Shown here: positions 5,405 through 55,237 of the stretch, one piece after another
Layout: each line of letters opens with the position of its first letter
How positions within the stretch are numbered: position 1 is the first letter of the stretch
DNA from: Candidatus Thalassarchaeum betae
Lineage (GTDB): Archaea; Thermoplasmatota; Poseidoniia; Poseidoniales; Thalassarchaeaceae
Assembly (NCBI GenBank): GCA_003193925.1
Contig: PSPG01000001.1
Coordinates: forward strand, 160,001 to 224,000
DNA length: 64,000 bases
Direction: 5' to 3'
Notes under the pieces: model-generated
Databases searched by the model: none
The model's input: only the letters and a program-made list of their open reading frames with translations
Told to the model about the DNA's origin: nothing
Translations under genes and position numbers: made by a program

Positions 5405-5704
5405 ATGGCGGACGAGACCCCCGTCATCCGGTTCTTCCGAGGCTCGAGGCCGCTGGGAACGGCCCGAATCGTGCCTGACACGCCGATTGTGGAGATAGCG
5501 GAACTCGCAGGCGTCGAGATTCCGACTAACTGCACCGCGGGGAACTGTGGGACCTGTCTCGTCAGGCTGGTTAGAGGCCGAGTCGACCTTCCCGAAGAGC
5601 TCCCGCCGGGACTGGACGATGATGTCGTGGCTGAAGGCGGCATCCTGACATGCTGCCTGTACCCTACAGGATCATGCGACATCGACGTGATTCCCCCGTT
5701 GTAG
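5405..5704 (+). CDS. Plant-type [2Fe-2S] ferredoxin
   Basis: CTAGNCGTC (C-x4-C-x2-C) plus a distal ILTCC. Confidence 0.9.
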   Translation: MADETPVIRFFRGSRPLGTARIVPDTPIVEIAELAGVEIPTNCTAGNCGTCLVRLVRGRVDLPEELPPGLDDDVVAEGGILTCCLYPTGSCDIDVIPPL

Positions 5705-40536: not shown

Positions 40537-43239
40537 ATGATGAAGCGTAGTCCTTCGACCGCTCTGCTGGCGGCTCTGCTGCTACTCACTGTGGCCTCAC
40601 CACTGGCTTCCGCCGAGGTCTCAGTAGCCCTTTCAGCAAGCCCGATGGCGCAGGAGGCCACCACTGATGACGATGCGGAGTACGACATCACCGTGACCAA
40701 CGACGGCGATGAGGACATCACGGTCACTCTGAGCACCCAGCAAGGCAGCGACTGCAGTGGGTTCTCGTCCTCCTTGGATTCCTACCAGGTCTCAGTCGAC
40801 CAAGGGGACTCTGAGACCGTCAAGCTGACCGTCACTGTGAACGACCAGGCCGATGGGGAGTGCGAGACGACCGTGGACGCCCAGGCTCAGGGAGAGGGAC
40901 TCCCGGGATCACCGGCCACCGATGACGTGACCGTGACCACCACCTCCGGCGATGGAGGCGGCCTGTACTCGGTAAAACTCTCGACCGATGAGTTGACCAA
41001 GACCTACGAGGGAGATGACAACGAGGGTGACAGCGTTGTCTGGGACGTCGAGGTCGAGAACAATGGCGAGCAGCAGGCCAACATCCAACTCGAGATGACC
41101 TCGGACAGCGACTGCGAGTCTGACACCTTGGACGCAACCGTCGACCCACAGGTCCTGCAACTGGAGCCCGAGGAGAATGAACAGGTCGAGGTGACCGTTG
41201 AGGTCCCCGATGGACGCTCCACCGAGGCCGGCAACCACTGCTTCATCCTCAAGGCGACTGTTACGAACGACCCTAACGCCGCCGATCAGGCCGAGGACAA
41301 CCTGACGCTGACCCTCATAATACCGGAGCTGAAGGAATGCGACCCCACCCTGCAGTACACCTCGCACAGCCTCGACCCCGACGAGTCTGCCAGCAACTCA
41401 TTCGAGGTCGAGAACGTCGGCAACACCGAGTGGACCGTCACCGCAAACGCTCAGGCTCAGGATTCGAGCCACGACATCACTGACTGGGTCGACTTCGACA
41501 GCCCGCTCAGTAAACTGCTCTCCGAGGCTGGGGGCTCTCAGGACAGCCATATCTTCACTTTCTCGGTCACCCCAGACGACTCTATCGAGTCGGGCACCCA
41601 GGTGGGCATCAAGATACAGGGACGTGCCGGTACCGCTGTGGGCTGCGAGCGAGTGCTCACGGTCACAGTCGGCCAGAGCCACGCCGCTACAATGACTCTG
41701 AGCAAGAACAAGCTCTCCAACGTCGAGCCCGGAACCTCAGACACAGTCTCAATACAGATAACAAATCTGGGCAACGGGATGGAGACGCTCTCCATAGGTG
41801 CCTCGGGGCTGCCTCCGGGCTGGCAGATATCCTTCTCCCAGAATTCAGTCACAGTTGGCAGCGTGCACTCTGGCAACAACAAGCAGACCATCAGCGCCGA
41901 GGTCTTCGTGCCCGAGGGCGCTAGCGCCGAGGAAGAGACTGTGATCACCTTCTCGGTCGGGCGTGGCGGTGGCAGCACGCCTTACGACACCAAGGACCTG
42001 ACAGTGTCTGTCGACGCACATCACGGCCTGACCACCTCGATTCTGTCCACCCAGCAGACGGGCAGGTCCAACCAGACCGTCCAGTTCCCGATAGATGTCA
42101 CCAACACGGGCAACATCCGCGACACCATCAAGCTCCTGACCTGCGACCCGAGCGACCAGACCGGATGCAACTCCCCCATGTGGGCCTCCTCGTACTCCGA
42201 CTCTCAGGGAAACACGATTACTCAGATCATCCTCGACCCGAGTGAGACCCAGAGGATATACCTGGACATCCTCGTTGAGGGCGAGGAGGATGCCGACTCA
42301 GCGAGCGTGCTCGCCCGCATCGCGATCTATGGCACGACGGTAATCGAAGACCACACTGTGAGCGTAATCGTCTCTAACTACAACTACGGTATGGCGATCA
42401 CACCGCAGAACCCTGGCGACATCCCGGACCAGATCGATGCGACTCTCCCACCGGGAGGCTCGCTTACCACTGCATTCTGGGTCGAGAACATCGGCGACTA
42501 CCCCGGTGGCGACGCCGTGGTGATATCGGTGACCGGGATGGAGTCGTCCGTACTGAGGACAATCACCGTCGAGGGAGTCGAGATCGAGGGAACAGTCTCA
42601 CTGGGACTGGGTGAGAGAGTGCTCATAGAAATCGAGATAGAGGTTCTCGAGGGCGTGGCGGACGGCGTCTCTGGAGTAGTGAAGGTCAGCGCCTACTCGG
42701 AGAAGAACACGGCACAGAGCACCTCGGTTGACATGATCGTCGAGGTCAGGACCATCCATGACCTCAGATTCACCCTCGAGGGGGAGGACGAGCAGACTGT
42801 CGAGTATCCCGACAAGGCCTACTTCTCCCTGTATGTCACCAATCACGGAAACACACTCGAGACGGTCGAAGTCCTGTCCAGCGAGTCGCTCAGGGGTTGG
42901 TCCGTCGATGTGGTCGATGAGGAGTTCGAACTCGAACCCGGAGTCACCCGGGAAATCGAGGTAAGGGTGACCCCACCGAGCGACTTGCTCGATGATGACA
43001 CCTATCTGTTCACTCTGACCGTGCAGCCCGAGGGTCTCACTGTGGCAGGTCAGCCCATTGATCTGACAGTGACATCGGAGATGCCCGCATCGTTCATCGG
43101 CCTGTCCGAGGAGGCAGCTCAGACACTGGTCTACGGCTCCATCATACTAGGATCGATTCTGGTCGTCGTTCTGTTCTTCCGCTCTCGCGCTGAAAACCGC
43201 AGGATAGTGGAAGCACTTGAAAATGAGTTAGAGGACTAG
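40537..43239 (+). CDS. Membrane-anchored multi-Ig surface protein (COG1470/NEW3-like repeats)
   Basis: Signal peptide, about 7 repeats of V.N.G(N)..D/E beta-sandwich units with Cys pairs, and a C-terminal TM helix. Confidence 0.8.
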   Translation: MMKRSPSTALLAALLLLTVASPLASAEVSVALSASPMAQEATTDDDAEYDITVTNDGDEDITVTLSTQQGSDCSGFSSSLDSYQVSVDQGDSETVKLTVTVNDQADGECETTVDAQAQGEGLPGSPATDDVTVTTTSGDGGGLYSVKLSTDELTKTYEGDDNEGDSVVWDVEVENNGEQQANIQLEMTSDSDCESDTLDATVDPQVLQLEPEENEQVEVTVEVPDGRSTEAGNHCFILKATVTNDPNAADQAEDNLTLTLIIPELKECDPTLQYTSHSLDPDESASNSFEVENVGNTEWTVTANAQAQDSSHDITDWVDFDSPLSKLLSEAGGSQDSHIFTFSVTPDDSIESGTQVGIKIQGRAGTAVGCERVLTVTVGQSHAATMTLSKNKLSNVEPGTSDTVSIQITNLGNGMETLSIGASGLPPGWQISFSQNSVTVGSVHSGNNKQTISAEVFVPEGASAEEETVITFSVGRGGGSTPYDTKDLTVSVDAHHGLTTSILSTQQTGRSNQTVQFPIDVTNTGNIRDTIKLLTCDPSDQTGCNSPMWASSYSDSQGNTITQIILDPSETQRIYLDILVEGEEDADSASVLARIAIYGTTVIEDHTVSVIVSNYNYGMAITPQNPGDIPDQIDATLPPGGSLTTAFWVENIGDYPGGDAVVISVTGMESSVLRTITVEGVEIEGTVSLGLGERVLIEIEIEVLEGVADGVSGVVKVSAYSEKNTAQSTSVDMIVEVRTIHDLRFTLEGEDEQTVEYPDKAYFSLYVTNHGNTLETVEVLSSESLRGWSVDVVDEEFELEPGVTREIEVRVTPPSDLLDDDTYLFTLTVQPEGLTVAGQPIDLTVTSEMPASFIGLSEEAAQTLVYGSIILGSILVVVLFFRSRAENRRIVEALENELED

Positions 43240-43294: not shown

Positions 43295-43324
43295 ACCCGT
43301 CGGTCCCTTGAGGGACCGCCGGGT
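43295..43324 (+). promoter_or_regulatory. 14-bp hairpin (one mismatch) overlapping the nuoA Shine-Dalgarno
   Basis: ACCCGTCGGTCCCT-TG-AGGGACCGCCGGGT; the 3' arm overlaps GGTGA (43322-43326), which precedes the ATG at 43332. Confidence 0.45.
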
Positions 43325-43331
43325 GATACCG

Positions 43332-43781
43332 ATGACCACAGTTCCCGAGGCCTACATCGCAGTCGCTGTGATGGCTCTCGTCGGCATCGGCTTCCCGGTG
43401 GTCACTTACATCGCTACGGCCTTCCTGAGGCCGAGGAAGGACCCCAACGATCCAAACATGATGCGATCCTGGCTGCTGCCAGGGTACGAGACCGACCAGA
43501 GCCTGTACATCCGCAGGGATAGCACCTACGAGTGCGGCGCCGAGCCGGTCGGGGACGCTCACATAAACTTCCACTTCCAGTATTACTGGTACGCCATCAT
43601 CTTCCTCGTCTTCGACATAGCGTTCATGTTCCTCGCCTTTGGCGGGGTCATCGCAATGCAGGACGGCATCCTAGAACGGCCGGAGGTCTACGGAGCTCTC
43701 GCCACCCTGACCGCGTTCATCGTGCTCATGGGCCTCGGCGTCTGGCACGTCTTCCGCAGGCGAGGCAGAATCTACATCTGA
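43332..43781 (+). CDS. nuoA: Complex I-like subunit A
   Basis: TYECGAEP and YYWYAIIFLVFD motifs; 3 TM helices. Confidence 0.92.
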   Translation: MTTVPEAYIAVAVMALVGIGFPVVTYIATAFLRPRKDPNDPNMMRSWLLPGYETDQSLYIRRDSTYECGAEPVGDAHINFHFQYYWYAIIFLVFDIAFMFLAFGGVIAMQDGILERPEVYGALATLTAFIVLMGLGVWHVFRRRGRIYI

Positions 43782-43790
43782 GGTGAGCGA

Positions 43791-44387
43791 ATGGCGGAGG
43801 ACGGGCAGAACTACTCGATGTTCAGCAGCAGGATGCTCGTCGATGTAGTCGGCGACGTCACCGACGAGGCACTCAAAGCCAGCCGCATCAAGGACATCCT
43901 CGGGGTCCTCGCTGGAAGAATCTTCAACTGGAGCCAGCGCAAGTCCCTGTTCCCGCTCCACCTCGGCATCAAGTGCTGCGCCCTCGAGATGGCCGCGGCA
44001 GGCGCAAGTCGCTTCGATGCCGAGCGCTTCGGAGTGTTCTTCCGCTCCAGCCCGAGGCAGTGCGACGTCCTGCTAGTCAACGGCCCGATCAGCAAGAAGT
44101 TCGCCGACCCCATCATTCGGCTCTGGGAGCAGATGCCCGAGCCCAAGTGGTGCATCGCCATGGGCGAGTGCTCGATCTCCGGCGGACCCTACTTCCAATC
44201 CTACAACATCCTCGAGGGCGTCGACACGATAATCCCCGTCGATGTCTACATCCCGGGATGCCCGCCTCGACCAGAGGCTCTGATTGACGGCTTCGACAAG
44301 CTGCGACAGAAAATCATCCGCATCGGTGCCATCCCGAGCGACGTCAGGCCGGAAACAGAGGCACCTCTCATCATCGGGGATGAGTAA
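43791..44387 (+). CDS. nuoB: Complex I-like subunit B (N2 cluster)
   Basis: CCALEM, SPRQCD, QMPEPKW, MGEC and VDVYIPGCPPRPE motifs. Confidence 0.96.
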   Translation: MAEDGQNYSMFSSRMLVDVVGDVTDEALKASRIKDILGVLAGRIFNWSQRKSLFPLHLGIKCCALEMAAAGASRFDAERFGVFFRSSPRQCDVLLVNGPISKKFADPIIRLWEQMPEPKWCIAMGECSISGGPYFQSYNILEGVDTIIPVDVYIPGCPPRPEALIDGFDKLRQKIIRIGAIPSDVRPETEAPLIIGDE

Positions 44388-44399
44388 GGGGGGGTTTCT

Positions 44400-45059
44400 G
44401 TGTCTAAGATCGTTCCAATCAAGGTGCAGAAGGCCGAGGCCGAGAAACTGGCCGCTGCCGTCTCGCAGATGGCCGGCGTCGAGGCCGAGGTGGTCGAGCG
44501 GGTCAATGGGACGCATCCTCGCCCCGTCGTGGTCGGGAACAGCTCCCCTGAGAGTTGGAGGGCACTCGCTGAGATGCTCCACTCAGAGCACGGCGTCGAC
44601 CACTGCTCGATGGTCACCGGCATCCACTGGCCAGAGGGAGACGCGGACAAGAAGTGGGAGGTCATCTACCACCTGATGAGAATCGCGGTCAGAGACCCAC
44701 CAATCGAGGATGGCTTAGTCCGGCCAATCATCGTCGACCCCTCGAAGGTGAAGGGGGCGAGCACGCCTCTGGAGCTGGAGTTCCACGTTCACCTGCCTGA
44801 CACGAGGACTCCTTCGGTCGACTCGGTACAGGACATCTGGGTCGGAGCAGACTGGAACGAGAAGGAGACCTGGGACCTCGTCGGGATAGACTTCGACGGA
44901 CATCAGGGCATGAGACGAGTCCTGCTGCCGCATGAGACCCCGAAGGGCTACCATCCGCTACAGAAGCAGCATCACCTGCGTTACCACGGCTTCGAGGAGA
45001 TGTACGACGATTCCCAAGGATTCATGCGCAAGCCCGCTGATGCTGGCAGGATCAAGTGA
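44400..45059 (+). CDS. nuoC: Complex I-like subunit C
   Basis: ADWNEKETWDLVGIDFDGH...HPLQK motif. Confidence 0.92.
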   Translation: MSKIVPIKVQKAEAEKLAAAVSQMAGVEAEVVERVNGTHPRPVVVGNSSPESWRALAEMLHSEHGVDHCSMVTGIHWPEGDADKKWEVIYHLMRIAVRDPPIEDGLVRPIIVDPSKVKGASTPLELEFHVHLPDTRTPSVDSVQDIWVGADWNEKETWDLVGIDFDGHQGMRRVLLPHETPKGYHPLQKQHHLRYHGFEEMYDDSQGFMRKPADAGRIK

Positions 45060-45068
45060 GGTGACAGA

Positions 45069-46205
45069 ATGGCAGAGATGTGGATATCGATGGGTCCCCA
45101 GCACCCGATGACCCACGGTCTTTGGACGCTCAAAGTCAAGGTCGACGGCGAGACCGTCGTCGACACCGAGCCCGACTTGGGATTCATCCACCGAGGCGTC
45201 GAGAAAATCTGCGAGGCTCGCGATTTCACCCAGATCACGACCTACTGCGACCGGCTCTGCTACGCCAGCGCCAACACCTGGTCCCATTCCTACATCTACG
45301 CGACCGAGGACCTGCTCGAAGTAGAGGTACCAGAGCGAGCAGAGTACATCCGACTGGTCGCCATCGAACTGCAGCGTATCGCGAGCCACCTGATGTGGCT
45401 CGGAGCCTACGGACCCGACACCGGCAACCTGAGCATCATGGTGTGGTGCCTGCGAGAGCGCGAGATGATGATGGATCTGCTGCAGGAGCTCGGCGGCTCG
45501 AGGCTGCACTACAACTTTCCACGTGTCGGCGGGGTGAAGCGCGACCTACCGCACGGCTTCGCCCAGCGAGCCCGCGCCAAGGTCAACCTGTTCCTCAATC
45601 GCATCCAGGAGTACGAAGCGCTGTTCGACGAGAGCACCGTCTTCCTCGTTCGCACTCAGGGCGTTGGCTACGCCAAGCCCGAGGAGATGGTGAACCACGG
45701 CGTCACCGGCCCCAACCTGCGAGCCGGTGGCGTGAACTACGACGTGCGCTGGGCCCATCCCTACGGTGTCTACAGCGAACTCGACTGGGAGCCACCGGTC
45801 GAGCGCTCGTCGATCAAGGGCGCCGACTGCTACGACCGCTACAGGGTCAGGGTGGAGGAGATGCGGCAGAGCGCGAACATGGTCTTGCAGGCTTTGGACA
45901 AGATGCCGGGAGGCGCGGACACATACCACGAGCCCGGCGACCCCATGATTCTCGCCAAGGCCCCCAGCCGCGCCCCGGAGGGGACCAGCGGAGCACACCA
46001 CTTCGAGGACAGCCGAGGTGAGTCGATGTTCTATATCGTCGGAGGAGGAGAGAACAGGGGAAAGCATCCCTACAGAGTCTCCATCCGCTCTCCGATGTTC
46101 ATCACGATTCCATACGCAGCGAAGTGCATGATTGGCTACAAGGTGGCCGACATCCCGGCCATCATGGGGTCCTTCGACCCGTGCATCGGGGAGACAGACA
46201 GGTGA
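45069..46205 (+). CDS. nuoD: Complex I-like subunit D (FpoD-like)
   Basis: GPQHPMTHG, GFIHRGVEK, DRLCY, ELQRIASH and DPCIGETDR motifs. Confidence 0.96.
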   Translation: MAEMWISMGPQHPMTHGLWTLKVKVDGETVVDTEPDLGFIHRGVEKICEARDFTQITTYCDRLCYASANTWSHSYIYATEDLLEVEVPERAEYIRLVAIELQRIASHLMWLGAYGPDTGNLSIMVWCLREREMMMDLLQELGGSRLHYNFPRVGGVKRDLPHGFAQRARAKVNLFLNRIQEYEALFDESTVFLVRTQGVGYAKPEEMVNHGVTGPNLRAGGVNYDVRWAHPYGVYSELDWEPPVERSSIKGADCYDRYRVRVEEMRQSANMVLQALDKMPGGADTYHEPGDPMILAKAPSRAPEGTSGAHHFEDSRGESMFYIVGGGENRGKHPYRVSIRSPMFITIPYAAKCMIGYKVADIPAIMGSFDPCIGETDR

Positions 46206-46214
46206 GGTGATAGC

Positions 46215-47792
46215 GTGGCGAGCAGCGATTGGTTGGATGTGAACGGCTGGTCAGAGTCGTTCTCGAGCTGGTCGATGGACAGCGTCCACGACGCCCTCCC
46301 ATCCGACGATATCGACTTGCAGATGACCATCCCGAGCACTTGGGCTTGGCCAGAGCCCATCACCATCGGCCCGATCTTCAACATGCAGGAAGACTTCGCG
46401 AGCATGCAGCCCGGCTTGGAGGCTTTCATGCATGCCACCATCATGTGCACAGTCGTCTTCACCGTCCTGATGCTGACGATGCTGGCGATCCCCTACATCG
46501 AGAGGAAGTTCATCGGTCGGCTGATGGACAGGCTCGGCGCCACGACCACCCTGAGAAGCCTCTGGGTCGGCGAGAGCGGAGTGACAGCAGGTGAGTGGTG
46601 GAAGCAGCTGCCGTTCGGCATGGGGACCCCCATTGGATGGACCGTCAACCTGCTGAATTCGATTTGGGGCAACAGCCACGAGTTGGAGACGGTCTCTCGG
46701 GTCAACAACCGCAGTTACCACGGTTACTGGTTCCTACTGCCAGGATTCTTCCAGGCGTTCGCCGACTTCCTGAAATTCGCGTCCAAGGAGCACATCGTTC
46801 CAAAGAACGCCGACAAGGTCGTCTTCGAGGTAGCTCCGGTCATCATCATCTCGACCACCATCCTGGTGTTCGCCTTCATCCCGTTCGGACCGCACATCTA
46901 TGCGGCCAACTCCGAACTCTCCCTCATCTTCATGATGGCTATCTTCGGAGTCGCTCCGCTGGGGGTCTTCTTCGCTGGGTGGGCATCCAACAACAAGTAC
47001 GCCCTGATTGGCGGAATGCGCTCCGCTGCCCAACTCACCGCCTACGAGATACCACTGCTCATCACAGTCCTCGGGGTCGCGGTGCTCAGCGGCTCGTTCA
47101 ACATTATCGAGATCGTCGACTTCCAGATGGGCCAGGATGAAGGCAACGTCTGGAACATCTTCCTGTTGCCTCTGGGTGCGGCCCTCTTCCTCATCACCAT
47201 GATCGCCGAGGTCGAGCGCATCCCGTTCGACATGCCCGAGGCCGAGGCCGAGCTCGTCGAGGGCTGGTGGACCGAGTACGGCGGCATCCGCTGGGGTCTG
47301 ATGTTCGCCGCCGAGTACATGCGCTCGTACGCCGCGTGCATCCTCTTCGCGCTCTTCTTCCTCGGTGGCTGGGAGGCACCGTTCCAGCACACGCTCTCCG
47401 GCCTGCCCACAGTGGGTGGCACCTTCGAGGCCGTGTTCGCTGCCACCCCAGGCCTCGTCTGGCTCCTGATCAAGGCTTGGCTGATGTTCGCCGTGTTCGT
47501 CTGGATCCGCGCCTCTCTACACAGGGTGCGCACGGACCAGATACTGGAGTTCGGATGGCGCTGGCTCCTGCCGCTCTCTTTGGTCAACCTCGTAGTAGCA
47601 ATCATACTGCGTCTTGAGTTCTGGACCGGGCAGCCTTGGGAGCTATGGGTCCCGGCCGCGCTCTCGCTGGCCGCGCTCGCACTGTTCGTGATACTCGCGA
47701 TTGACGAGGACGAGGACGCGCTGCAGGCCCAGCGCAGACCGTACAGCACGCAGGCTGTGGTCAAGGCATCGCCAGGGAGCCACAGGGACTAG
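46215..47792 (+). CDS. nuoH: Complex I-like subunit H, with N-terminal extension and loop insertion
   Basis: ERKFIGRLMDRLG, QAFADFLKFASKE, GWASNNKYALIGGMR, RIPFDMPEAEAELVEG and RVRTDQ motifs. Confidence 0.95.
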   Translation: MASSDWLDVNGWSESFSSWSMDSVHDALPSDDIDLQMTIPSTWAWPEPITIGPIFNMQEDFASMQPGLEAFMHATIMCTVVFTVLMLTMLAIPYIERKFIGRLMDRLGATTTLRSLWVGESGVTAGEWWKQLPFGMGTPIGWTVNLLNSIWGNSHELETVSRVNNRSYHGYWFLLPGFFQAFADFLKFASKEHIVPKNADKVVFEVAPVIIISTTILVFAFIPFGPHIYAANSELSLIFMMAIFGVAPLGVFFAGWASNNKYALIGGMRSAAQLTAYEIPLLITVLGVAVLSGSFNIIEIVDFQMGQDEGNVWNIFLLPLGAALFLITMIAEVERIPFDMPEAEAELVEGWWTEYGGIRWGLMFAAEYMRSYAACILFALFFLGGWEAPFQHTLSGLPTVGGTFEAVFAATPGLVWLLIKAWLMFAVFVWIRASLHRVRTDQILEFGWRWLLPLSLVNLVVAIILRLEFWTGQPWELWVPAALSLAALALFVILAIDEDEDALQAQRRPYSTQAVVKASPGSHRD

Positions 47793-47803
47793 GAGGTGGG
47801 AAG

Positions 47804-48772
47804 ATGAGTTACAAGGCTAACACAGGACACCCGCACGCGACCCCGAACTTCCGCAATCTCCTCATCCGCCCGATGTGGATGACGCTGAAGACCGCGCTCA
47901 GGACAGTCCCCTTCGTCGGCAAGGCGAGATTCCTGAAGAACGACTACCACGGCCAACCCACGGTCATGGTCGACCAGACCACGATGGAAAGGGTCGGACC
48001 GGAGCATCCGAGCGCCGGCCAGAAGTTCGCTCCTGACCGGGAGACCAGCCAGGTCATGCCGTTCATCGAGCGTCCGGTCACGGTGATGTACCCGTACGAG
48101 CGTCTCGAGGACCTCGAGCCATGGCTCTTCGTCCCCGGAAATTACTTCGGTCGAATCGGAATAGTCTGGGAGACGTGCACATCGTGCAAGTTGTGTATCC
48201 GTGCCTGTCCAAACGACTGCCTCCACATGACCACTGAATTGCGCGTCGATGTTCTGGATCTCCCCGATGAGGACGATGAGTGGCACGGCTACGGAAGCGA
48301 ACTCGAGGAAGGCGGCTACGCAGCCAGGGAGAAGGAGGAATACGACGAGATCGCCGTCGGCTTCGACTTGATCAACGCCCACGCCGACGCGCCTCAGCAG
48401 TACGACTTCGCCGAGGTCATCGAGATCTCTGGCGACAAGGCGACTGTGCGGTGGTCCGACGGCTCGGGAATCGAGACCGTTGACTCATCCTCGCTGAAGC
48501 GAGCCGAGCAGGACATAGTCTCTGGGCAGATCGACCTAGGGCGATGCATGTTCTGCGGACTGTGCGCCGAGGCGTGCCCGTTCGAGTCCTTCTTCATGAC
48601 GAACGAGTATGACGGAATGTCGGGGTTCTCTCGCGAGGAGCTCTGGATGGACGCCAGTAGGACCCGCTTGCTCCCCGCGGTGCATCAGGAAAGAGTCGAC
48701 ATGGAACTCGCTAAGCGCGCTGAGAGGGAGGAGAAGAAGCGCTCTAGGAAGGCCGCTAGGGCGGAGGCCTGA
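47804..48772 (+). CDS. nuoI: Complex I-like subunit I (2x[4Fe-4S]) with a large insertion
   Basis: VTVMYPYE, CTSCKLCIRACP and IDLGRCMFCGLCAEACP motifs. Confidence 0.92.
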   Translation: MSYKANTGHPHATPNFRNLLIRPMWMTLKTALRTVPFVGKARFLKNDYHGQPTVMVDQTTMERVGPEHPSAGQKFAPDRETSQVMPFIERPVTVMYPYERLEDLEPWLFVPGNYFGRIGIVWETCTSCKLCIRACPNDCLHMTTELRVDVLDLPDEDDEWHGYGSELEEGGYAAREKEEYDEIAVGFDLINAHADAPQQYDFAEVIEISGDKATVRWSDGSGIETVDSSSLKRAEQDIVSGQIDLGRCMFCGLCAEACPFESFFMTNEYDGMSGFSREELWMDASRTRLLPAVHQERVDMELAKRAEREEKKRSRKAARAEA

Positions 48773-48777
48773 GGCGA

Positions 48778-49047
48778 ATGCAGATCGACTTCGAGGCGCT
48801 GGTGTTCGTCATTCTCGCAGCGACCGCCATAGGCGGCGCGCTGGGATGCGTCTACGCCCGCCGTGTCGCGCGCTCCCTGCTCTGTCTCATGATGACCTTC
48901 TTCGCGGTCGCGGGCGTCTTCGTGATGGCCAGCGCAGAGATGCTAGCCGCGGTCCAGATTCTCGTGTACCTCGGCTCGGTTATGCTCGTCGTCCAGTTCG
49001 GAGTCATGCTCACCCGCAGGCAGATACAGGAGGGTGACATCGAATGA
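48778..49047 (+). CDS. nuoJ: Complex I-like subunit J, N-terminal half
   Basis: AEMLAAVQILVYLGSVMLVVQFGVML motif. Confidence 0.9.
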   Translation: MQIDFEALVFVILAATAIGGALGCVYARRVARSLLCLMMTFFAVAGVFVMASAEMLAAVQILVYLGSVMLVVQFGVMLTRRQIQEGDIE

Positions 49048-49310
49048 GGGCACTATCGGCACTGGCCCGATTTGGAGTATTCGCATTCATCCTCATCCTG
49101 CTCTCCGAGGTCATGTCACACCCGATGTGGGGCTCGAGTGAGACACCCCCATCCACACTCGACTTCGCTGTCGCTCTGTTCAATGAGTGGTCGATGGCGA
49201 TCGTGGTGCTGGGCGTGCTGCTGGCGATGGCCATGATCGGTGCTTCTTACCTCGTGCGCGACGAGCGTTTGGCCAACCTGATTTGGGACTTGGAAGGTGA
49301 TGACCAGTGA
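49044..49310 (+). CDS. nuoJ: Complex I-like subunit J, C-terminal half
   Basis: LFNEW...VLGVLLAMAMIGA; ATGA overlap; split J is also seen in archaeal Fpo-like operons. Confidence 0.8.
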   Translation: MRALSALARFGVFAFILILLSEVMSHPMWGSSETPPSTLDFAVALFNEWSMAIVVLGVLLAMAMIGASYLVRDERLANLIWDLEGDDQ

Positions 49311-49609
49311 TCGAGGCCAGCTGGATAGCCGGCCTCGGCGTCATACTGTTCGGGGTGGGTCTGCTAGGCGCGTTCACTCGCAAGAACGCTATTGTGGTAC
49401 TGATGTGCATCGAGGTGATGCTGAACGCGGCCAACCTCAACTTCGTCGCCGGTGCTGCGCACTACGGCGACGTCAACGGCTGGGTGTTCACGGCTATCGC
49501 AATCGCAATCGCAGCCGCTGAGGTCGCAATCGGGCTCGCCATCCTGTTGTCTCTGTACAGCACGCAGGAGACGATCTCTCTCGACGAGGCGAATATTCTG
49601 AGGAACTAG
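49307..49609 (+). CDS. nuoK: Complex I-like subunit K
   Basis: LMCIEVMLNAANLN and AAAEVAIGLAI motifs. Confidence 0.95.
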   Translation: MIEASWIAGLGVILFGVGLLGAFTRKNAIVVLMCIEVMLNAANLNFVAGAAHYGDVNGWVFTAIAIAIAAAEVAIGLAILLSLYSTQETISLDEANILRN

Positions 49610-49617
49610 GTGGGAGC

Positions 49618-51945
49618 ATGAGCGAATCGAAGAACGAGTGGCACCTTCTACTGCCTATCCTGCCGTTCCTAGCTGTCGCACCTTACCTCCGTTCGATCGG
49701 TTGGGAGTCCGTCGATGCCGCCTACCTGATCGTCGTGATCCCGCTGCTGATCTTCCCCCTGATTCTGATTCTGGGACAGATGTTCAACGGCAACGTGACA
49801 TGGAAGCACCGTTACAAGGAGGGAGGTATCTTCGCCCTCGGCGCCCTTGCTCTGTCTCTCAGCATAGCCGTCTGGATACTCTATGACTACCTGGTCGGCT
49901 CAGCTCACTTCGAGTCCGCCTCCGTGGTCGACCCCTTCTCGTGGCTGACCTTCGACGTTCTCGAGCAGAACGGCTCGCAGTGGGAGCTCAGCACCGGCTT
50001 CGCCGACATTGGCGTGGGCGTCTGGATAGACTCAATCAGCTTGATGCTGCTGTTCGTCGCGACCTTCCTGTGCTTCCTGATCTGCTGGTTCAGCCTCGGC
50101 TACATGAACATGGACTCGATCAACGAGGACCGCAACCACCGCTTCTACGGGGAGTTCGTGCTCTTCGGCATCGGCATGTTCGGCATGGTCCTCGCTGACA
50201 ATTTCCTGTGGCTGTTCATCTTCTGGGAGATAATGGGGCTCTGCTCGTATCTCCTCATTGGCTTCTACTTCTGGAAGGAGAGTGCAGCCTACGCCGCCAA
50301 GAAGGCCTTCCTGACTACCCGGGTGGGCGATGTGTTCCTAGTGGTCGGCCTGGTGATTCTCTACGACATCTACGGCTCACTGGAGTTCGCCGTGATCTTC
50401 GACGACCCGTCGACTGGCGTCGGCGGATCGCTCGTCGACTCCGGGGAGCTGTTCTGGGCGCTGATGATGCTCTTCATCGGAGCCGTCGGCAAATCCGCCC
50501 AGTTCCCGCTCCATGTCTGGCTGCCCGACGCGATGGAGGGCCCGACGCCCGTCTCTGCGCTCATACACGCGGCGACGATGGTGAACGCGGGACTCTACCT
50601 CGTCGCTAGGATGGTGCCGTTCGTCGACATCGGCCACGGTGGTGTCGCAGGACTCGAGGACCTCGGCCTGATCATAGCCTGGATAGGCGGTATCACGGCG
50701 TTCATGGCCGCCGCCATCGCCTTCGTCCAGAACGACATCAAGAAAGTCCTTGCCTACTCGACGATGAGCCAACTCGCCTACATCTTCACAGGCTTGGGCG
50801 CAGCACTCTTCCTCCTCAACATCGGCGAGCAGAGCGCCGGCTACTTCGTGCTGGGCGCCTCGATGTTCCATCTGTTCAACCACGCTATGGCCAAGGGGAT
50901 GCTGTTCATGGCGAGCGGCTCGGTAGTCCACGAGCTCCACCACGCCCACGACCACGTCCGCAAGCTCAGCCTCAAGTACAGCGCTCACGAGGGCGAGGAC
51001 CCCTTTGCCTTCGATCCGCTGGACATGCGCAACATGGGCGGCCTGGCCGCAAGGATGCCGGTCACTGCAACAGCGATGATGTTCGGCTCGATGTCGATTA
51101 TCGGCATCCCACTCATCGGCGGCTTCTGGTCCAAGGAAGGAATCATCGCCGAGACTTGGGCCGCCTGCCTGAAAGAAGAGCCGATGATGTTCGTACCCGC
51201 CCTGCTCATCCTCGCGACTGCTGGCATGACGGGTTTCTACATGACGCGGATGTGGCTGATGACCTTCGCCGGCTCGCCCAAGAGCGAGGTGGTCGGGCAC
51301 GTCCACGAAGCGACGCCCTGGATCAAGGAACCGCTGATCATCCTAACTCTCTTCGCTGCCATCGGCGGATTCGCCCTTGCCGTGCTGGGAGCCGTCAACT
51401 TCCTCGGTAGCGAGCATGACCACCTCGGCTTGGCGCACGGCAGCGCTTTGGACGAGGTGATCTACCAGCTCGAGCACGCTTTCCTACCTGAGGACACCAA
51501 CATGCGACTGATCGGCTGGACCACGATACTACTGGCTCTGGTCATCGGACCCGTGATGGCTTCTCGCATCCACGGAGGGAGACTCATCGAGGGAGTCGAA
51601 GCCACGCCCCTGGTAGCCTGGCTGGTGAACCTGTCAAGCCGCCTCGGCTCGCAGGACGTCGACGAACTCGCCAACTCGCAACTCGCCGAAGCCCTGCAGA
51701 GGAGGCTGTACTTCGACGACCTATACGAGATGGTGTTGGCGAAGACCGTGGTTCCGTTCGCTGCATTTGCCGCCTGGTTCGACCAGAACGTCATCGACGG
51801 CGTCATCAAGCAGGTCGAGTCCAATTCGGTCTTCGGCTCGGTCCAGATTCGCAGATTGACCACGGGCAGCGCCCGCGACTACATCCTGATGGCAGCGGTC
51901 GGGATGCTCTCCGTCTTCGCACTGGTATGGGGGGTGAGCGCCTGA
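49618..51945 (+). CDS. nuoL: Complex I-like antiporter subunit L
   Basis: WEIMGLCSYLLIGF, GKSAQFPLHVWLPDAMEGPTPVSALIHAATMV and KKVLAYSTMSQL motifs. Confidence 0.96.
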   Translation: MSESKNEWHLLLPILPFLAVAPYLRSIGWESVDAAYLIVVIPLLIFPLILILGQMFNGNVTWKHRYKEGGIFALGALALSLSIAVWILYDYLVGSAHFESASVVDPFSWLTFDVLEQNGSQWELSTGFADIGVGVWIDSISLMLLFVATFLCFLICWFSLGYMNMDSINEDRNHRFYGEFVLFGIGMFGMVLADNFLWLFIFWEIMGLCSYLLIGFYFWKESAAYAAKKAFLTTRVGDVFLVVGLVILYDIYGSLEFAVIFDDPSTGVGGSLVDSGELFWALMMLFIGAVGKSAQFPLHVWLPDAMEGPTPVSALIHAATMVNAGLYLVARMVPFVDIGHGGVAGLEDLGLIIAWIGGITAFMAAAIAFVQNDIKKVLAYSTMSQLAYIFTGLGAALFLLNIGEQSAGYFVLGASMFHLFNHAMAKGMLFMASGSVVHELHHAHDHVRKLSLKYSAHEGEDPFAFDPLDMRNMGGLAARMPVTATAMMFGSMSIIGIPLIGGFWSKEGIIAETWAACLKEEPMMFVPALLILATAGMTGFYMTRMWLMTFAGSPKSEVVGHVHEATPWIKEPLIILTLFAAIGGFALAVLGAVNFLGSEHDHLGLAHGSALDEVIYQLEHAFLPEDTNMRLIGWTTILLALVIGPVMASRIHGGRLIEGVEATPLVAWLVNLSSRLGSQDVDELANSQLAEALQRRLYFDDLYEMVLAKTVVPFAAFAAWFDQNVIDGVIKQVESNSVFGSVQIRRLTTGSARDYILMAAVGMLSVFALVWGVSA

Positions 51946-53543
51946 TCGACGACCCCCTGTCTGTACTCACCCTCCTACCTCTGGCCGCTGGTCTGATCTT
52001 GCTGGTCCTGCCTCAGATCCTGCCCAGCCGATCTGCAGGCGGCCTCATGCGCGTTTCCCGCAACATCAGCATGGGCGTGGCGCTTGCCATCGCCGTGCTC
52101 ACCACCATGCTGTTCGTCGGCGAGATCGGCAATATAGACTGGACCAACATCACCCAAGGAGGCTACGTCCTCGAGAACGAGCCCGTGTCCCTCATCCCCT
52201 CGATCGGGGTGACTTGGAAGGTAGGCGCAGACGCACTGTCTTTCCCGATGATCTGGCTCACAGCGGTCCTCATCCCTGTCTCGATGCTGGTCGAGTGGGA
52301 CGCCAAGAGGGGCCACCTCTTCCACCCACTGCTCCTGCTGATGGAAAGCGCGCTCATAGGAGTCTTCGTCGCCCTCGACCTGTTCGTCTTCTTCGTCTTC
52401 TGGGAGCTGACCCTGATTCCGATGTTCCTGCTCATCCTCGTATGGGGTGGGGAGGACCGGCGCTATGCGGCGATGAAGTTCTTCATCTACACATTCACGG
52501 CGAGCGTCTTCATGCTGGTCGGCATCCTCGTCATGTACTTCCACACCGATTCAATCTCCGGCCTCGGCAGCCTGTCAGGGCACCACTTCGACTTGGTTGC
52601 AATGACCGCTCAGGACAATCTGATTCCGAGTGAGGGCCTCAGGCATTTCGTCTGGCTTCTCCTGCTCATCGGCTTCGCCACCAAGATGCCCAGCGTCCCG
52701 TTTCACACTTGGCTGCCTGACGCCCACGTCGAAGCTCCCACAGCAGGCTCTATGCTGCTGGCTGGAGTGATGCTGAAGATGGGCGCCTACGGTTTCCTGC
52801 GAATCGCGGTCACTGTCTTCCCCGAGTCCACGGTGGTGTTCATCCCGCTGCTGATAGTGCTGGGGATGGTGAGTCTGGTCTACGGCGCATGGGTCTGCAT
52901 GGGCCAGACCAACCTCAAGCGCATGGTCGCCTACTCCTCGGTGTCTCACATGGGGCTGATCTTCCTCGGCATCGCCACGATGCAGCCGTTGGGCGTCGCC
53001 GGCGCGCTGTTCATGATGTTCGCTCACGGCATCATCAGCCCGCTTCTGTTCGCGGTGGCTGGCGCCTTCAAGCACCACTACCACACGCTAGAGATCGGCG
53101 CGATGAGGGGCATGGCGCACCACAGTCCGTGGCTTGCGGGACACATGATGTTCGGCTGGATGGCGAGCCTCGGTCTGCCGCTGCTCGCCGGCTTCGTCGC
53201 CGAGGTCACCATCATGATCGCATTCTGGATGTCCTTCGGCTGGCTGGTCCTGCTGCCGGCACTCACTCTCATCGTCACAGCCGCGTACTTCGTGACCTCG
53301 ATGCAGCGTACCATCTTCGAGTCGAACGACCCGCATCAGGGGGTCCTGCCTGACACCCTGCACGGCGAGAATCCCAGTGACATAACCTGGCATGAGAACA
53401 TCGGGATGTTCGTACTCGTCGGCATGATCGCGCTGTTTGGCATCATGCCGTTCATCTTCTGGGACATGATGTCCGACTGGAGTTCCGGCTTCGTGCTCGA
53501 TACGCTGGTGGAAGCGATGCAGTCGCAGGGGTGGAAGCCATGA
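51942..53543 (+). CDS. nuoM: Complex I-like antiporter subunit M
   Basis: FFVFWE, KFFIYT, PFHTWLPDAHVEAPT and AYSSVSHMG motifs. The start is either CTG 51942 (SD-spaced) or ATG 51927. Confidence 0.95.
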   Translation: MIDDPLSVLTLLPLAAGLILLVLPQILPSRSAGGLMRVSRNISMGVALAIAVLTTMLFVGEIGNIDWTNITQGGYVLENEPVSLIPSIGVTWKVGADALSFPMIWLTAVLIPVSMLVEWDAKRGHLFHPLLLLMESALIGVFVALDLFVFFVFWELTLIPMFLLILVWGGEDRRYAAMKFFIYTFTASVFMLVGILVMYFHTDSISGLGSLSGHHFDLVAMTAQDNLIPSEGLRHFVWLLLLIGFATKMPSVPFHTWLPDAHVEAPTAGSMLLAGVMLKMGAYGFLRIAVTVFPESTVVFIPLLIVLGMVSLVYGAWVCMGQTNLKRMVAYSSVSHMGLIFLGIATMQPLGVAGALFMMFAHGIISPLLFAVAGAFKHHYHTLEIGAMRGMAHHSPWLAGHMMFGWMASLGLPLLAGFVAEVTIMIAFWMSFGWLVLLPALTLIVTAAYFVTSMQRTIFESNDPHQGVLPDTLHGENPSDITWHENIGMFVLVGMIALFGIMPFIFWDMMSDWSSGFVLDTLVEAMQSQGWKP

Positions 53544-55237
53544 GTTCGATTTTCACTGTAATAGACGCCGAGACGGCGGTACTCATCCTGCCCGAACTCA
53601 TCATGCTGGCGGGTGTGCTCACGATGATCCTCATTCCCAATCTCGGAGACGCCACGATGCGAATCCCACTCACCACCACGCGCGTCCCCATCCTGTTCGG
53701 AGGCACGAGGTTCGCAACCACAAGCAACCCGAAGATGCCCAATCAGATTGCTCTGGCGACCTTCGGACTAGCACTGGCCTCAGCCTTCCTGTTCCTAGGC
53801 GACGAGGGAGATGTCGGGAACACCCTGCATGTCGATGCGTTCAGCAGGATATTCACGATGATATTCACAGCAGCTCTGCTGCTGGCCTCGGTCGCTACGA
53901 CACACCGACTACCAGCGCGGCCCAAGGTGACCGCACCGATCGAGTCGGACTCGTCGGCAAGGGCCGACATGAAGGTCAACGCGCTGATAGACAACCGCCG
54001 GCAGGTCGACTTCCACATCCTACTAGTCACGACCGGCCTCGGAATGAGCCTGATGGCGATGGCCACCAACCTGTTCATGCTGTTCGTCTGCCTCGAGCTC
54101 GCCTCGCTCTCCTCGTACATCCTAGTGGCCTTCCACAAAGAGCTGGATGTCGGCGGCGAAGCCGGGACGAAGTACTTCATCGTCGGCTCGGTGCTATCCG
54201 CGGTCGGAATCTACGGGATGTCACTGCTGTATCTGTGGAACGGCAACTTGGACATGGCCGACTTGGCGGCCTCGTGGGACGCCATGGAGACGATGGACCC
54301 GTTCGCTGCAATCGGCGTCGGCCTGATGCTGGTCGCGTTCGGCTTCAAGGTCGGCGCAGCGCCCTTCCACCTCGCCGTGCCCGACGCCTACGCAGGTGCA
54401 TCCTCCCCTGTAGCAGGGGTTCTGGCCACGGCCTCGAAGGCGATGGGGTTCGTCGCCCTCATGCGACTCCTGCTAATCGTCACTATGCCAGTCGAAGGGG
54501 GCGCGTTCTGGCTCATCGTCCTCTCCATAATCGCAGTAGTGACGATGACGTGGGGGAATCTGGCAGCGCTCACCAGCGACAACCCGAAGCGCATGCTCGC
54601 GTACTCGAGCGTGGCCCACGCTGGCTACATGCTCGCTGCGCTCGCAGCCATCGGCAGTGGGCTGGCCGACTCCGATGGCACAGCCCTGCTAATAACCGCG
54701 GTGGTGTTCCACCTCGTCGTCCTCGTGCTGTTCAAACTCGGCCCATTCCTGGTCCTCTCGATGCTCGAGACCGAAGGGCGCAGCCACCAGTTGGAGTGCC
54801 TCCACGGTCTAGCTCGAAGGGACCCGGCAGTCGCCGCCTCGATGTTCGTCTTCATGCTCTCCCTCGCGGGAGTACCGCCGTTCTCCGGGTTCCTGTCCAA
54901 ACTCTTGATGATCAACGGTATCGTCAACGTCTCAGCCGGCACTGGGTCACTGTCTTCGACATCGGTCATGTCCTGGACCCAAGGCGTCGACCCGATCTTC
55001 TGGCTGGCCGTTGCCATAGTCCTCAACAGCGCCCTTTCACTGTTCTACTACCTGAGAATCGGAGTCGTGATGTTCTCCGAAGCTCCTGAGAGCGAGAGGA
55101 AGCTCAGGCGCACTGGCTCCCTCAGGCTGGCCATAGTGGGATGCGCGCTACTCACTCTGCTCTTCGGAATCGGCCCGATGAGCGAGTCACTCCTAGACAT
55201 AGTCAGCGCCGCAGTCGACTCCTTCATGGGCAACTGA
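53540..55237 (+). CDS. nuoN: Complex I-like antiporter subunit N
   Basis: EAGTKYF, FKVGAAPFH..PDAY.G, KRMLAYSSVAHAGY and SLAGVPP motifs; ATGA overlap. Confidence 0.95.
   Translation: MSSIFTVIDAETAVLILPELIMLAGVLTMILIPNLGDATMRIPLTTTRVPILFGGTRFATTSNPKMPNQIALATFGLALASAFLFLGDEGDVGNTLHVDAFSRIFTMIFTAALLLASVATTHRLPARPKVTAPIESDSSARADMKVNALIDNRRQVDFHILLVTTGLGMSLMAMATNLFMLFVCLELASLSSYILVAFHKELDVGGEAGTKYFIVGSVLSAVGIYGMSLLYLWNGNLDMADLAASWDAMETMDPFAAIGVGLMLVAFGFKVGAAPFHLAVPDAYAGASSPVAGVLATASKAMGFVALMRLLLIVTMPVEGGAFWLIVLSIIAVVTMTWGNLAALTSDNPKRMLAYSSVAHAGYMLAALAAIGSGLADSDGTALLITAVVFHLVVLVLFKLGPFLVLSMLETEGRSHQLECLHGLARRDPAVAASMFVFMLSLAGVPPFSGFLSKLLMINGIVNVSAGTGSLSSTSVMSWTQGVDPIFWLAVAIVLNSALSLFYYLRIGVVMFSEAPESERKLRRTGSLRLAIVGCALLTLLFGIGPMSESLLDIVSAAVDSFMGN

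Follow-up and report, generated by a model that had tools for sequence, protein, structure and literature searches.

How electrons enter a complex I without a NuoEFG module is the question raised by a 64,000-nucleotide stretch of DNA from Candidatus Thalassarchaeum betae (contig PSPG01000001.1, positions 160,001 to 224,000; hereafter the window). Its nuo operon encodes a NuoI subunit in which an insert separates the two [4Fe-4S] motifs. On the predicted model, this insert is a folded SH3-type small β-barrel at the tip of the hairpin that links the two motifs, and it is specific to the order Poseidoniales, one of the most abundant archaeal orders of the ocean. What donates electrons to the archaeal 11-subunit complex I has long been an open point, passed over in the case of Marine Group II (MGII); in the portion available to us, Tully (2019; PMC6336850) calls the MGII complex I canonical. 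The reading that we favor, at about even confidence, is that the insert is an accessory module built into the donor apex of an 11-subunit complex, itself probably ferredoxin-dependent, where it would support or gate the hairpin and its pocket rather than serve as the binding surface, and that it is analogous, possibly homologous, to the NDH-1 subunit NdhO. No description of the insert was found in the literature searched, subscription journals lying outside its coverage.

The nuoABCDHIJ1J2KLMN operon is complete (43308–55237, + strand; open reading frames, ORFs, and Pfam), each gene being confirmed by Pfam in the order given by the initial annotation of the window. Both cluster motifs of NuoI (Table 1) follow the CxxCxxCxxxCP pattern of clusters N6a and N6b, and the motifs, homology and gene position between nuoH and nuoJ identify the product as the NuoI/NdhI (TYKY) subunit. 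Its closest solved relatives by sequence are NdhI/NuoI chains (spinach 9grx_I, E = 5.5e-13; Thermosynechococcus elongatus 6hum_I, E = 1.9e-11). The solved chains match NuoI in HMMER as two collinear blocks; for 9grx_I, NuoI residues 90–150 pair with 33–86 and 238–283 with 91–135, about four residues of spinach NdhI standing where the window NuoI has 87. The spacer between the motifs measures 111 residues from P136 to C248 (112 between the flanking cysteines), exactly the length initially reported and set there against a usual value of about 30; spinach NdhI has about 28 residues there, the sister family discussed below 41. Pfam Fer4 matches are confined to residues ∼120–147 and 237–261, with none between them.

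The input module was sought in the genome that contains the window (23 contigs, 91.84% complete, 0.81% contamination), with control genomes positive for each family. PF01512 (NuoF), PF01257 (NuoE), PF10588 (NuoG) and PF04432 (FrhB/FpoF) gave 0 matches in this 91.84%-complete genome, so that the lack of nuoEFG and fpoF, initially noted for the operon, holds for the genome searched. Judged by its gene content, the complex is an 11-subunit headless complex I of the NDH-1/Fpo-like type with no NuoEFG or FpoF match. RnfB was proposed as the connection to ferredoxin by Tully (2019), as far as the available portion of PMC6336850 goes; it was rejected here, as the RnfB-type FeS domain PF04060 has no match in the window genome. 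NuoF-family (PF01512) ORFs occur sporadically in the order and do not track the insert. Such frames, of 443–694 residues and mostly of about 630, were found in 10/101 genomes of the order (for example G079:C15:49026-49514 and G010:C7:2767-3249), two of them on the nuoI contig at a distance of 22–38 kb; none was present in the five other genomes of the genus of the window.

The insert is a constrained, order-wide feature under purifying selection. A protein search returned 380 relatives of NuoI at E ≤ 0.001; the 120 of these that were listed are 66–99% identical and mostly 295–334 residues long, with a few fragments of 229–259 residues, and some are labelled marine group II/III euryarchaeote, Thalassarchaeaceae or Thermoplasmatota. 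A spacer of 110–113 residues is kept in each of the 15 relatives retrieved at full length. Genome searches found full-length NuoI with the insert in 198 of the 201 genomes of the order and in 24/24 genera, and an insert-only query (residues 145–240), run against a 401-genome sample of the phylum, matched 34/36 genomes of family f1 and 58/58 of family f3. The same query matched 0/10 genomes of sister family f4, which belongs to the same class, and gave only two marginal matches (E = 9.8e-4 and 0.0065, each with an in-frame TGA) in the rest of the sample. Ratios of nonsynonymous to synonymous substitution rates (dN/dS; 15 pairs from six genes of the genus) were 0.057 for the insert, 0.037 for the Fe–S core and 0.083 for the N-terminal region, with 0.055–0.057 for the barrel segment (48317–48514); these ratios are rough because dS is near saturation.

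AlphaFold2 was run on the whole of NuoI with 19 close sequences (model 1) and on residues 86–300 with 38 rows (model 2). The mean predicted local distance difference test (pLDDT) score was 46.3 for model 1, poor overall, and 60.9 for model 2, in which the Fe–S core was still poor. Residues 170–237 were confident in model 1 and had pLDDT values of 79–95 in model 2, and the insert is accordingly predicted to be folded and not disordered. The models show a long hairpin with strands 140–148 and 232–244, the tip of which is formed by strand 172–176, helix 180–186 and strands 200–209, 212–217 and 223–227. The peptide in which the initial annotation had recognized an SH3/Tudor pattern, YDFAEVIEISGDKATVRWSDGSGIETVDSSSLKR, corresponds to NuoI residues 200–233 (48401–48502) and, as described there, follows an acidic stretch (residues 150–199, net charge −14).

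A Foldseek search of the PDB with model 2 gave no match at E ≤ 0.001. Its best small-domain rows (ranks 1, 3, 16 and 35) were a designed SH3 barrel and the Tudor domains of PHF19 and PHF20, with template-modelling (TM) scores by target of 0.68–0.74 and root-mean-square deviations (r.m.s.d.s) of 2.1–2.7 Å; rows for the Hck SH3 and myosin N-terminal SH3 domains were also returned, and several high rows were Pif1 helicases with low probability. VIA-align searches covered 48,161 representatives and the top 996 Foldseek chains. The 50 rows that it showed include Tudor, KOW, PWWP, chromo and myosin-SH3 domains with Z scores of 6.9–5.3 over 50–55 residues, tied within about one unit, and the best of them (Z = 6.9–6.0, r.m.s.d. 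of 2.0–3.2 Å) cover 51–55 residues of targets of 52–58 residues. The fold matches span model residues 79–151, equivalent to NuoI 164–236. The SH3/Tudor pattern thus holds as a fold class for the predicted model, the best matches being SH3, Tudor and KOW barrels. Tudor, KOW and chromo barrels are the closest in structure (Z = 6.2–6.9, r.m.s.d. of 2.0–2.5 Å over whole domains of 52–58 residues), but they have no significant sequence relation to the insert and a different biological context, and neither a methyl-lysine cage nor nucleic-acid binding is in evidence.

In Pfam, the insert gave only sub-threshold hints, to the SH3-like Myosin_N (E = 0.007–0.03; 5/21 inserts, the best of these at E = 0.016), Tudor_3 (E = 0.09) and Agenet (1/21). 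Among 1.84 billion representatives, 18 proteins matched the insert at E ≤ 0.001, and 11 of these are NuoI or pieces of it. The remaining seven are giant repeat proteins (four were scanned and contain PKD_4, Big_2 or Big_3 repeats), and their matches rest on a short T-V-x-W-x-D-G-S pattern summed over 4–10 repeats; they were put down to chance and rejected, since a barrel of 38 residues cannot be an Ig domain. The recurrence of a T-V-x-W/Y-x-D-G-S hairpin in these giant PKD, Big_2 and Big_3 proteins (P0130, P0132–P0136 and P0138) was judged to be convergent or due to chance. A single insert searched against PDB sequences gave only matches of E = 0.08–0.55 (an RNA-free RNase P and an uncharacterized protein), which were rejected, and a search of the ESM Atlas with residues 166–242 gave no usable match.

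With a profile of 21 inserts as query, 177,635 PDB sequences yielded two matches. The first, the PPR protein 5iww_D, was rejected as repeat inflation, its E-value of 0.049 being built up from three repeats of some 4 bits each. The second was NdhO of T. elongatus (6hum_O, E = 1.3), which was followed up because NdhO adjoins NdhI in the solved complex. Using 25 NdhO and 21 NdhS genes from cyanobacterial genomes and column-shuffle controls, hhalign aligned the insert (20 rows) with NdhO at a probability of 56.5% (P = 1.1e-4, score 27.4); the shuffles scored 10.8 ± 2.4 with a maximum of 18.9, and 0/200 reached the observed score. With 48 rows, the probability was 65.4% (P = 5.9e-5, score 28.6; 0/100 shuffles), and NdhO compared with NdhS gave 1.9% (P = 0.026, score 14.8). 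The confident part of the alignment comprises 16–17 columns, in which EVIEISGDKATVRW pairs with the corresponding NdhO hairpin. A relaxed alignment is collinear (NdhO 1–71 with insert positions 21–91) and also pairs the preceding conserved Pro, Tyr and Phe.

The position of the barrel in NuoI corresponds to a part of NdhI with a described role. According to the accessible text of PMC6992706, NdhI has a long hairpin loop that rises over the arm and is flanked by ferredoxin on one side and NdhV on the other; the 2Fe-2S cluster of ferredoxin lies 9.6 Å from N6a. Lys86, Lys89 and Lys91 of NdhI contact ferredoxin, and the ferredoxin pocket, formed by NdhI, NdhH, NdhV and NdhO, is highly positive, according to the portion of PMC7021789 available. 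In the HMMER alignment, which gives range coordinates only, residues 87–141 of T. elongatus NdhI (6hum_I) pair with NuoI 230–287, and the three lysines align approximately with the return strand 232–244. This pairing and the published hairpin contacts together place the barrel within the hairpin that is central to ferredoxin binding, and we infer that it would lie at the donor site of the assembled complex.

A candidate electron donor lies in the same window. The plant-type [2Fe-2S] ferredoxin listed in the initial annotation (5405–5704) was recovered as a Fer2 protein; it is a single stand-alone ferredoxin encoded 42 kb from nuoI, has a net charge of −8 and an isoelectric point (pI) of 4.20, and its cysteines (C43-x4-C48-x2-C51-x31-C83) are invariant in 22 orthologs. 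Orthologs occur in 88/101 genomes of the order. A profile run on 301 genomes across the phylum detected them in 16/21 genomes of family f1 and 40/42 of family f3; sister family f4 gave none, either in this search (0/8) or in a separate one (0/5), and the profile matches elsewhere in the phylum were weak generic Fer2 matches in ten genomes (E = 8e-9 to 3e-6). Ferredoxin and insert thus originate on the same branch, which is suggestive, although it is a single event. Two 2-oxoacid:ferredoxin oxidoreductase loci are present in the genome. At G000:C4:72844-73396, two adjacent POR_N matches lie in different frames, the second with an in-frame TGA; a frameshift, a pair of genes or an error of assembly could each account for this. 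A joint prediction of NuoI 86–300 and the ferredoxin with their clusters gave 0.00 for both of its scores, the mark being 0.32, and yields no verdict, neither for nor against binding. We infer that ferredoxin could act as the donor of the complex described here. The general idea is a current one: a 2024 preprint (10.1101/2024.07.04.601786), in the part available, puts forward NuoI as the place where ferredoxin docks in headless Asgard complexes.

The charge of the insert is the opposite of that of every described NDH-1 ferredoxin site. Residues 145–240 (96 residues) have a net charge of −20 and a pI of 4.05, with −14 in residues 150–199 and −5 in the barrel part; the charge density of about −0.21 per residue lies beyond the fifth percentile (−0.12) of 859 crude ORFs of the genome. 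Being hyper-acidic, the barrel is unlikely to be the primary surface for ferredoxin. The N-terminal region of NuoI (residues 1–87, net charge +5, pI 10.11) and its Lys/Arg-rich C-terminal helix (the 32 residues 291–322, net charge +3, pI 9.99, conserved in the order according to the alignments) are basic and would be better candidates for attracting an acidic ferredoxin. In the mechanism that we propose, the barrel would be a built-in equivalent of the small NDH-1 accessory subunits around the site, NdhO being the closest, and would most likely buttress the hairpin and shape, shield or gate the donor pocket.

The precedent for this accessory-module reading is the O-site, described in the available text of PMC13249358 as NdhO together with the extended β-hairpin of NdhI, NdhO being a probable negative regulator. 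Both systems are headless, with NdhH–K or NuoBCDI and no NuoEFG, and in both a small barrel would stand beside the NdhI hairpin, at the apex near N6a. NdhO is also the best profile similarity of the insert among the NDH-1 accessory subunits, and the layout of the model (a strand, a helix and three strands) is the same as that read for NdhO from the alignment rather than from coordinates. The differences are that the barrel is fused into the NuoI hairpin whereas NdhO is a separate subunit of 70 residues, that the insert is acidic while NdhO and the NdhI hairpin bear lysines facing ferredoxin (in T. elongatus NdhO these are the N-terminal Lys4 and Lys5, according to the accessible portion of PMC7021789), that the host is a nonphotosynthetic archaeon and that the confident alignment covers only 16–17 residues.

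Several observations weigh against the accessory-module reading or its NdhO component. The Fe–S core has pLDDT values of 26–60 in both models, so that neither fixes how the barrel is oriented towards N6a, and all fold-match Z scores are below 8, a range in which only a common arrangement may be reflected. The proteome is itself acidic (median pI 5.06 over the 859 crude ORFs), so any exposed domain would be acidic, and the common distribution of ferredoxin and insert amounts to one branch of the tree and thus a single event. The signal for NdhO is weak and comes from a short motif; its PDB E-value is 1.3. An NdhO hidden Markov model (HMM) built from the 25 sequences ranks the NuoI frame fifth of 20,937 six-frame ORFs with E = 18, and the frames above it share only a GEVxDxxGD pattern. 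Foldseek places T. elongatus NdhO (6nbq_O) at rank 21 with a probability of 0.99, but with a TM score by target of 0.56 and an r.m.s.d. of 9.1 Å over 70 columns; the 50 VIA-align rows contain NdhS and not NdhO, an absence that, according to the tool, does not exclude similarity. The Lys-Lys-Gly of NdhO pairs with Glu-x-Gly (E168-x-G170), in a low-confidence part of the relaxed alignment. The NdhO family PF11910 has no Pfam match on the insert at E ≤ 10 nor on the 21 inserts at E ≤ 1.

Homology of the barrel to NdhO is possible from these profile comparisons but not established. The stronger proposal, that the barrel is a true NdhO homolog fused into the ferredoxin-contacting hairpin of NuoI and shares its branch of origin with a dedicated [2Fe-2S] ferredoxin, we regard as unlikely. 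If it were true, the Poseidoniales complex I would be a ferredoxin:quinone oxidoreductase with a built-in, charge-inverted O-site gating the access of ferredoxin, and the NdhO module would predate, or have moved between, cyanobacteria and archaea; a link to NdhO would also call into question the specificity of this subunit to oxygenic photosynthesis.

The initial annotation had proposed instead that the barrel is a donor-docking module resembling NdhS, that is, a fused NdhS forming the docking surface for the ferredoxin at 5405–5704. We consider this unlikely. What stands of the proposal is the site, as the insert lies within the hairpin that touches ferredoxin in NDH-1 (PMC7021789 and PMC6992706, in their available portions), and the order-limited distribution that the insert shares with the ferredoxin. 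The genome also encodes 2-oxoacid oxidoreductases that reduce ferredoxin and gives no NuoEFG match, and the SH3-like barrel has NdhS among its structural matches: 3c4s_A (Z = 6.1), 6hum_S (5.7), 6a7k_B (5.6) and 2jz2 (5.3), the first three with r.m.s.d.s of 2.6–3.1 Å over 52–55 residues and 2jz2 with 5.9 Å over 62 residues. These chains are, however, tied with dozens of unrelated barrels, and the resemblance is not specific. With hhalign, the insert and NdhS gave probabilities of 0.2% (20 rows; P = 0.26, score 10.5) and 0.7% (48 rows; P = 0.084, score 13.1), the latter score being reached by 15/100 shuffles. The NdhS family PF11623 has no match in the genome, on the insert (E ≤ 10) or on the 21 inserts (E ≤ 1), and NuoI is not among the 12 best frames for the NdhS HMM.

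In a further comparison with NdhS (CRR31, Ssl0352), the insert model shares its SH3-like fold, and NdhS is seated in the NdhI groove, but the basic residues and the Lys-rich C-terminal tail of NdhS sequences are lacking in the acidic insert, and NdhS, as read from its sequences, has no helix between the first two strands. A basic C-terminal tail is found in NuoI itself and recalls that of NdhS, which may work by 'fly-casting' (PMC13249358, available portion). The role of NdhS as a ferredoxin binder, initially taken as established, is contested: the accessible part of PMC7021789 places this SH3-like subunit about 25 Å from ferredoxin and regards it more likely as a foothold for NdhV.

The charges argue against docking as well, with −20 on the 96 residues of the insert facing −8 on the 99 residues of the ferredoxin, although acidic partners may bind through bridging cations in an acidic proteome, as in halophile biochemistry. 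The five small Fe–S ORFs of the genome (≤177 residues) are also acidic (net charge −2 to −18), and a basic ferredoxin was rejected as a partner, all ten frames with a CxxCxxCxxxC motif being acidic. The conserved positions of the insert are mostly glycines (G162, G164 and G170) and core aromatics (F202 and W217), with H193 and P197, and do not form a charged patch. The described pocket of NDH-1, as noted above, is highly positive.

Photosystem I offers a looser parallel. PsaC is likewise a 2×[4Fe-4S] protein, around which the small flanking proteins PsaE and PsaD shape a ferredoxin pocket, PsaE having an SH3-like barrel fold. No sequence relation of the insert to any photosystem I subunit is detectable, PsaE is a separate protein and not an insertion, and no PsaE chain was among the rows shown by Foldseek or VIA-align, an absence that the latter notes is not excluding. 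Ferredoxin is described in the available text of PMC7021789 as binding NdhI as it does PsaC.

A similarly low probability attaches to the view that the insert plays no part in donor handling and is a decoration serving structure or solubility, one of several lineage-specific additions to the complex that stabilize the headless arm or cover the surface NuoG would otherwise occupy. NuoI has gained other segments relative to the sister family: about 50 N-terminal residues (alignment positions Y48, H49, D57, R63 and D78-R79-E80 being conserved), a seven-residue loop (LEDLEPW) and the C-terminal helix. NuoH, too, is longer than in that family (525 against 390 residues). The conserved insert positions are structural and the surface acidity is in line with that of the proteome, and the proposal overlaps with the buttressing part of our preferred reading. 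However, the insert and the Fe–S core are under equally strong purifying selection, the insert has been kept throughout the order and it stands exactly in the hairpin that contacts the donor (PMC7021789 and PMC6992706, available portions); selection, retention and placement therefore suggest more than a neutral decoration.

The sister family f4, which we take to be probably Marine Group III from GTDB taxonomy, provides a comparison for such modifications. In five f4 genomes the nuoI ortholog stands between nuoH and nuoJ1, but its 41-residue spacer is basic and lacks the barrel, sharing with the window only the acidic start and a W-x-G-S motif; the acidic linker (residues 150–170) is partly common to both in the alignments. 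Instead, the f4 protein has a second, C-terminal 2×[4Fe-4S] domain and hence four CxxCxxCxxxCP motifs (for example L016:1414-2181, L017:1414-2187 and L020:1405-2199). The spacer and the extra domain indicate that two lineages have altered the same electron-input subunit in different ways. The second di-cluster domain appears to extend the electron-input wire by another built-in route, and the sister lineage would thereby have met the same problem in its own way.

Least probable of all, in our estimate, is docking of the acidic barrel to some other, basic partner, for instance a regulatory protein, or a dehydrogenase or input module that has escaped recognition and takes the place of NuoEFG. 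A basic ligand would suit so strongly acidic, conserved and solvent-exposed a domain at the input apex, which donor archaeal 11-subunit complexes use is still to be established, and NuoF-family ORFs of about 630 residues occur in the order (10/101 genomes). The operon, however, has no additional gene in or beside it, neither a basic small Fe–S protein nor an RnfB-type FeS domain was found in the genome, and the NuoF-family ORF was not found in the window genome or the other genomes of the genus (0/5), where the insert is present.

If the accessory-module reading is correct, functions that cyanobacteria assign to separate accessory subunits (NdhO, NdhS and NdhV) can be supplied within a core subunit. 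The insert and the co-distributed [2Fe-2S] ferredoxin provide an order-specific handle on electron input, and both can be expressed and tested although the organisms are uncultured.

Table 1. Coordinates of the nuo operon, of the segments of NuoI and of the candidate donor in the window.
Feature	Coordinates	Strand	Remarks
[2Fe-2S] ferredoxin, plant-type	5405–5704	+	99 residues; PF00111, E = 7.6e-15
nuoA	43308–43781	+	Pfam Oxidored_q4
nuoB	43791–44387	+	Pfam Oxidored_q6
nuoC	44400–45059	+	Pfam Complex1_30kDa
nuoD	45069–46205	+	Pfam Complex1_49kDa
nuoH	46215–47792	+	525 residues; Pfam NADHdh
nuoI	47804–48772	+	322 residues; 2×[4Fe-4S] subunit with insert
NuoI N-terminal region, residues 1–87	47804–48064	+	Amphipathic helix; helix 17–31 at low confidence in model 1
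NuoI first cluster motif, C125–P136	48176–48211	+	CTSCKLCIRACP
NuoI outgoing hairpin strand, residues 140–148	48221–48247	+	Strand in both predicted models
NuoI acidic linker with conserved G-x-G, residues 150–170	48251–48313	+	VLDLPDEDDEWHGYGSELEEG; pLDDT 35–58
NuoI SH3/Tudor-like barrel, residues ∼172–237	48317–48514	+	Predicted model
NuoI return hairpin strand, residues 232–244	48497–48535	+	Strand 232–243 in model 1
NuoI second cluster motif, C248–P259	48545–48580	+	CMFCGLCAEACP
NuoI C-terminal Lys/Arg-rich helix, residues 291–322	48674–48769	+	Helix 292–321 in model 1, pLDDT 58–74
nuoJ1	48778–49047	+	89 residues; Pfam Oxidored_q3
nuoJ2	49044–49310	+	88 residues; Pfam Oxidored_q3
nuoK	49307–49609	+	Pfam
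nuoL	49618–51945	+	Pfam
nuoM	51927–53543	+	Pfam
nuoN	53531–55237	+	Pfam

Some further features of the locus were noted. At the outgoing edge of the hairpin, E145, V148, V150 and L151 are invariant in the NuoI alignment. The second cluster motif of the NuoI genes of families f3 and f2 (L001–L009) ends in CG, CN or CD and not in CP. The NADHdh match of NuoH starts at residue 177, so that about 170 residues precede it as an N-terminal extension. Two ORFs share nuoJ between them; they overlap by four bases and correspond to Oxidored_q3 positions 1–65 and 79–146; a short nuoJ1 (87 residues) is also found in the sister family. The ORF directly upstream of the operon (40537–43239) encodes a very acidic protein of 900 residues with a signal-like segment at its N terminus and a hydrophobic anchor at its C terminus, by its appearance a surface protein.

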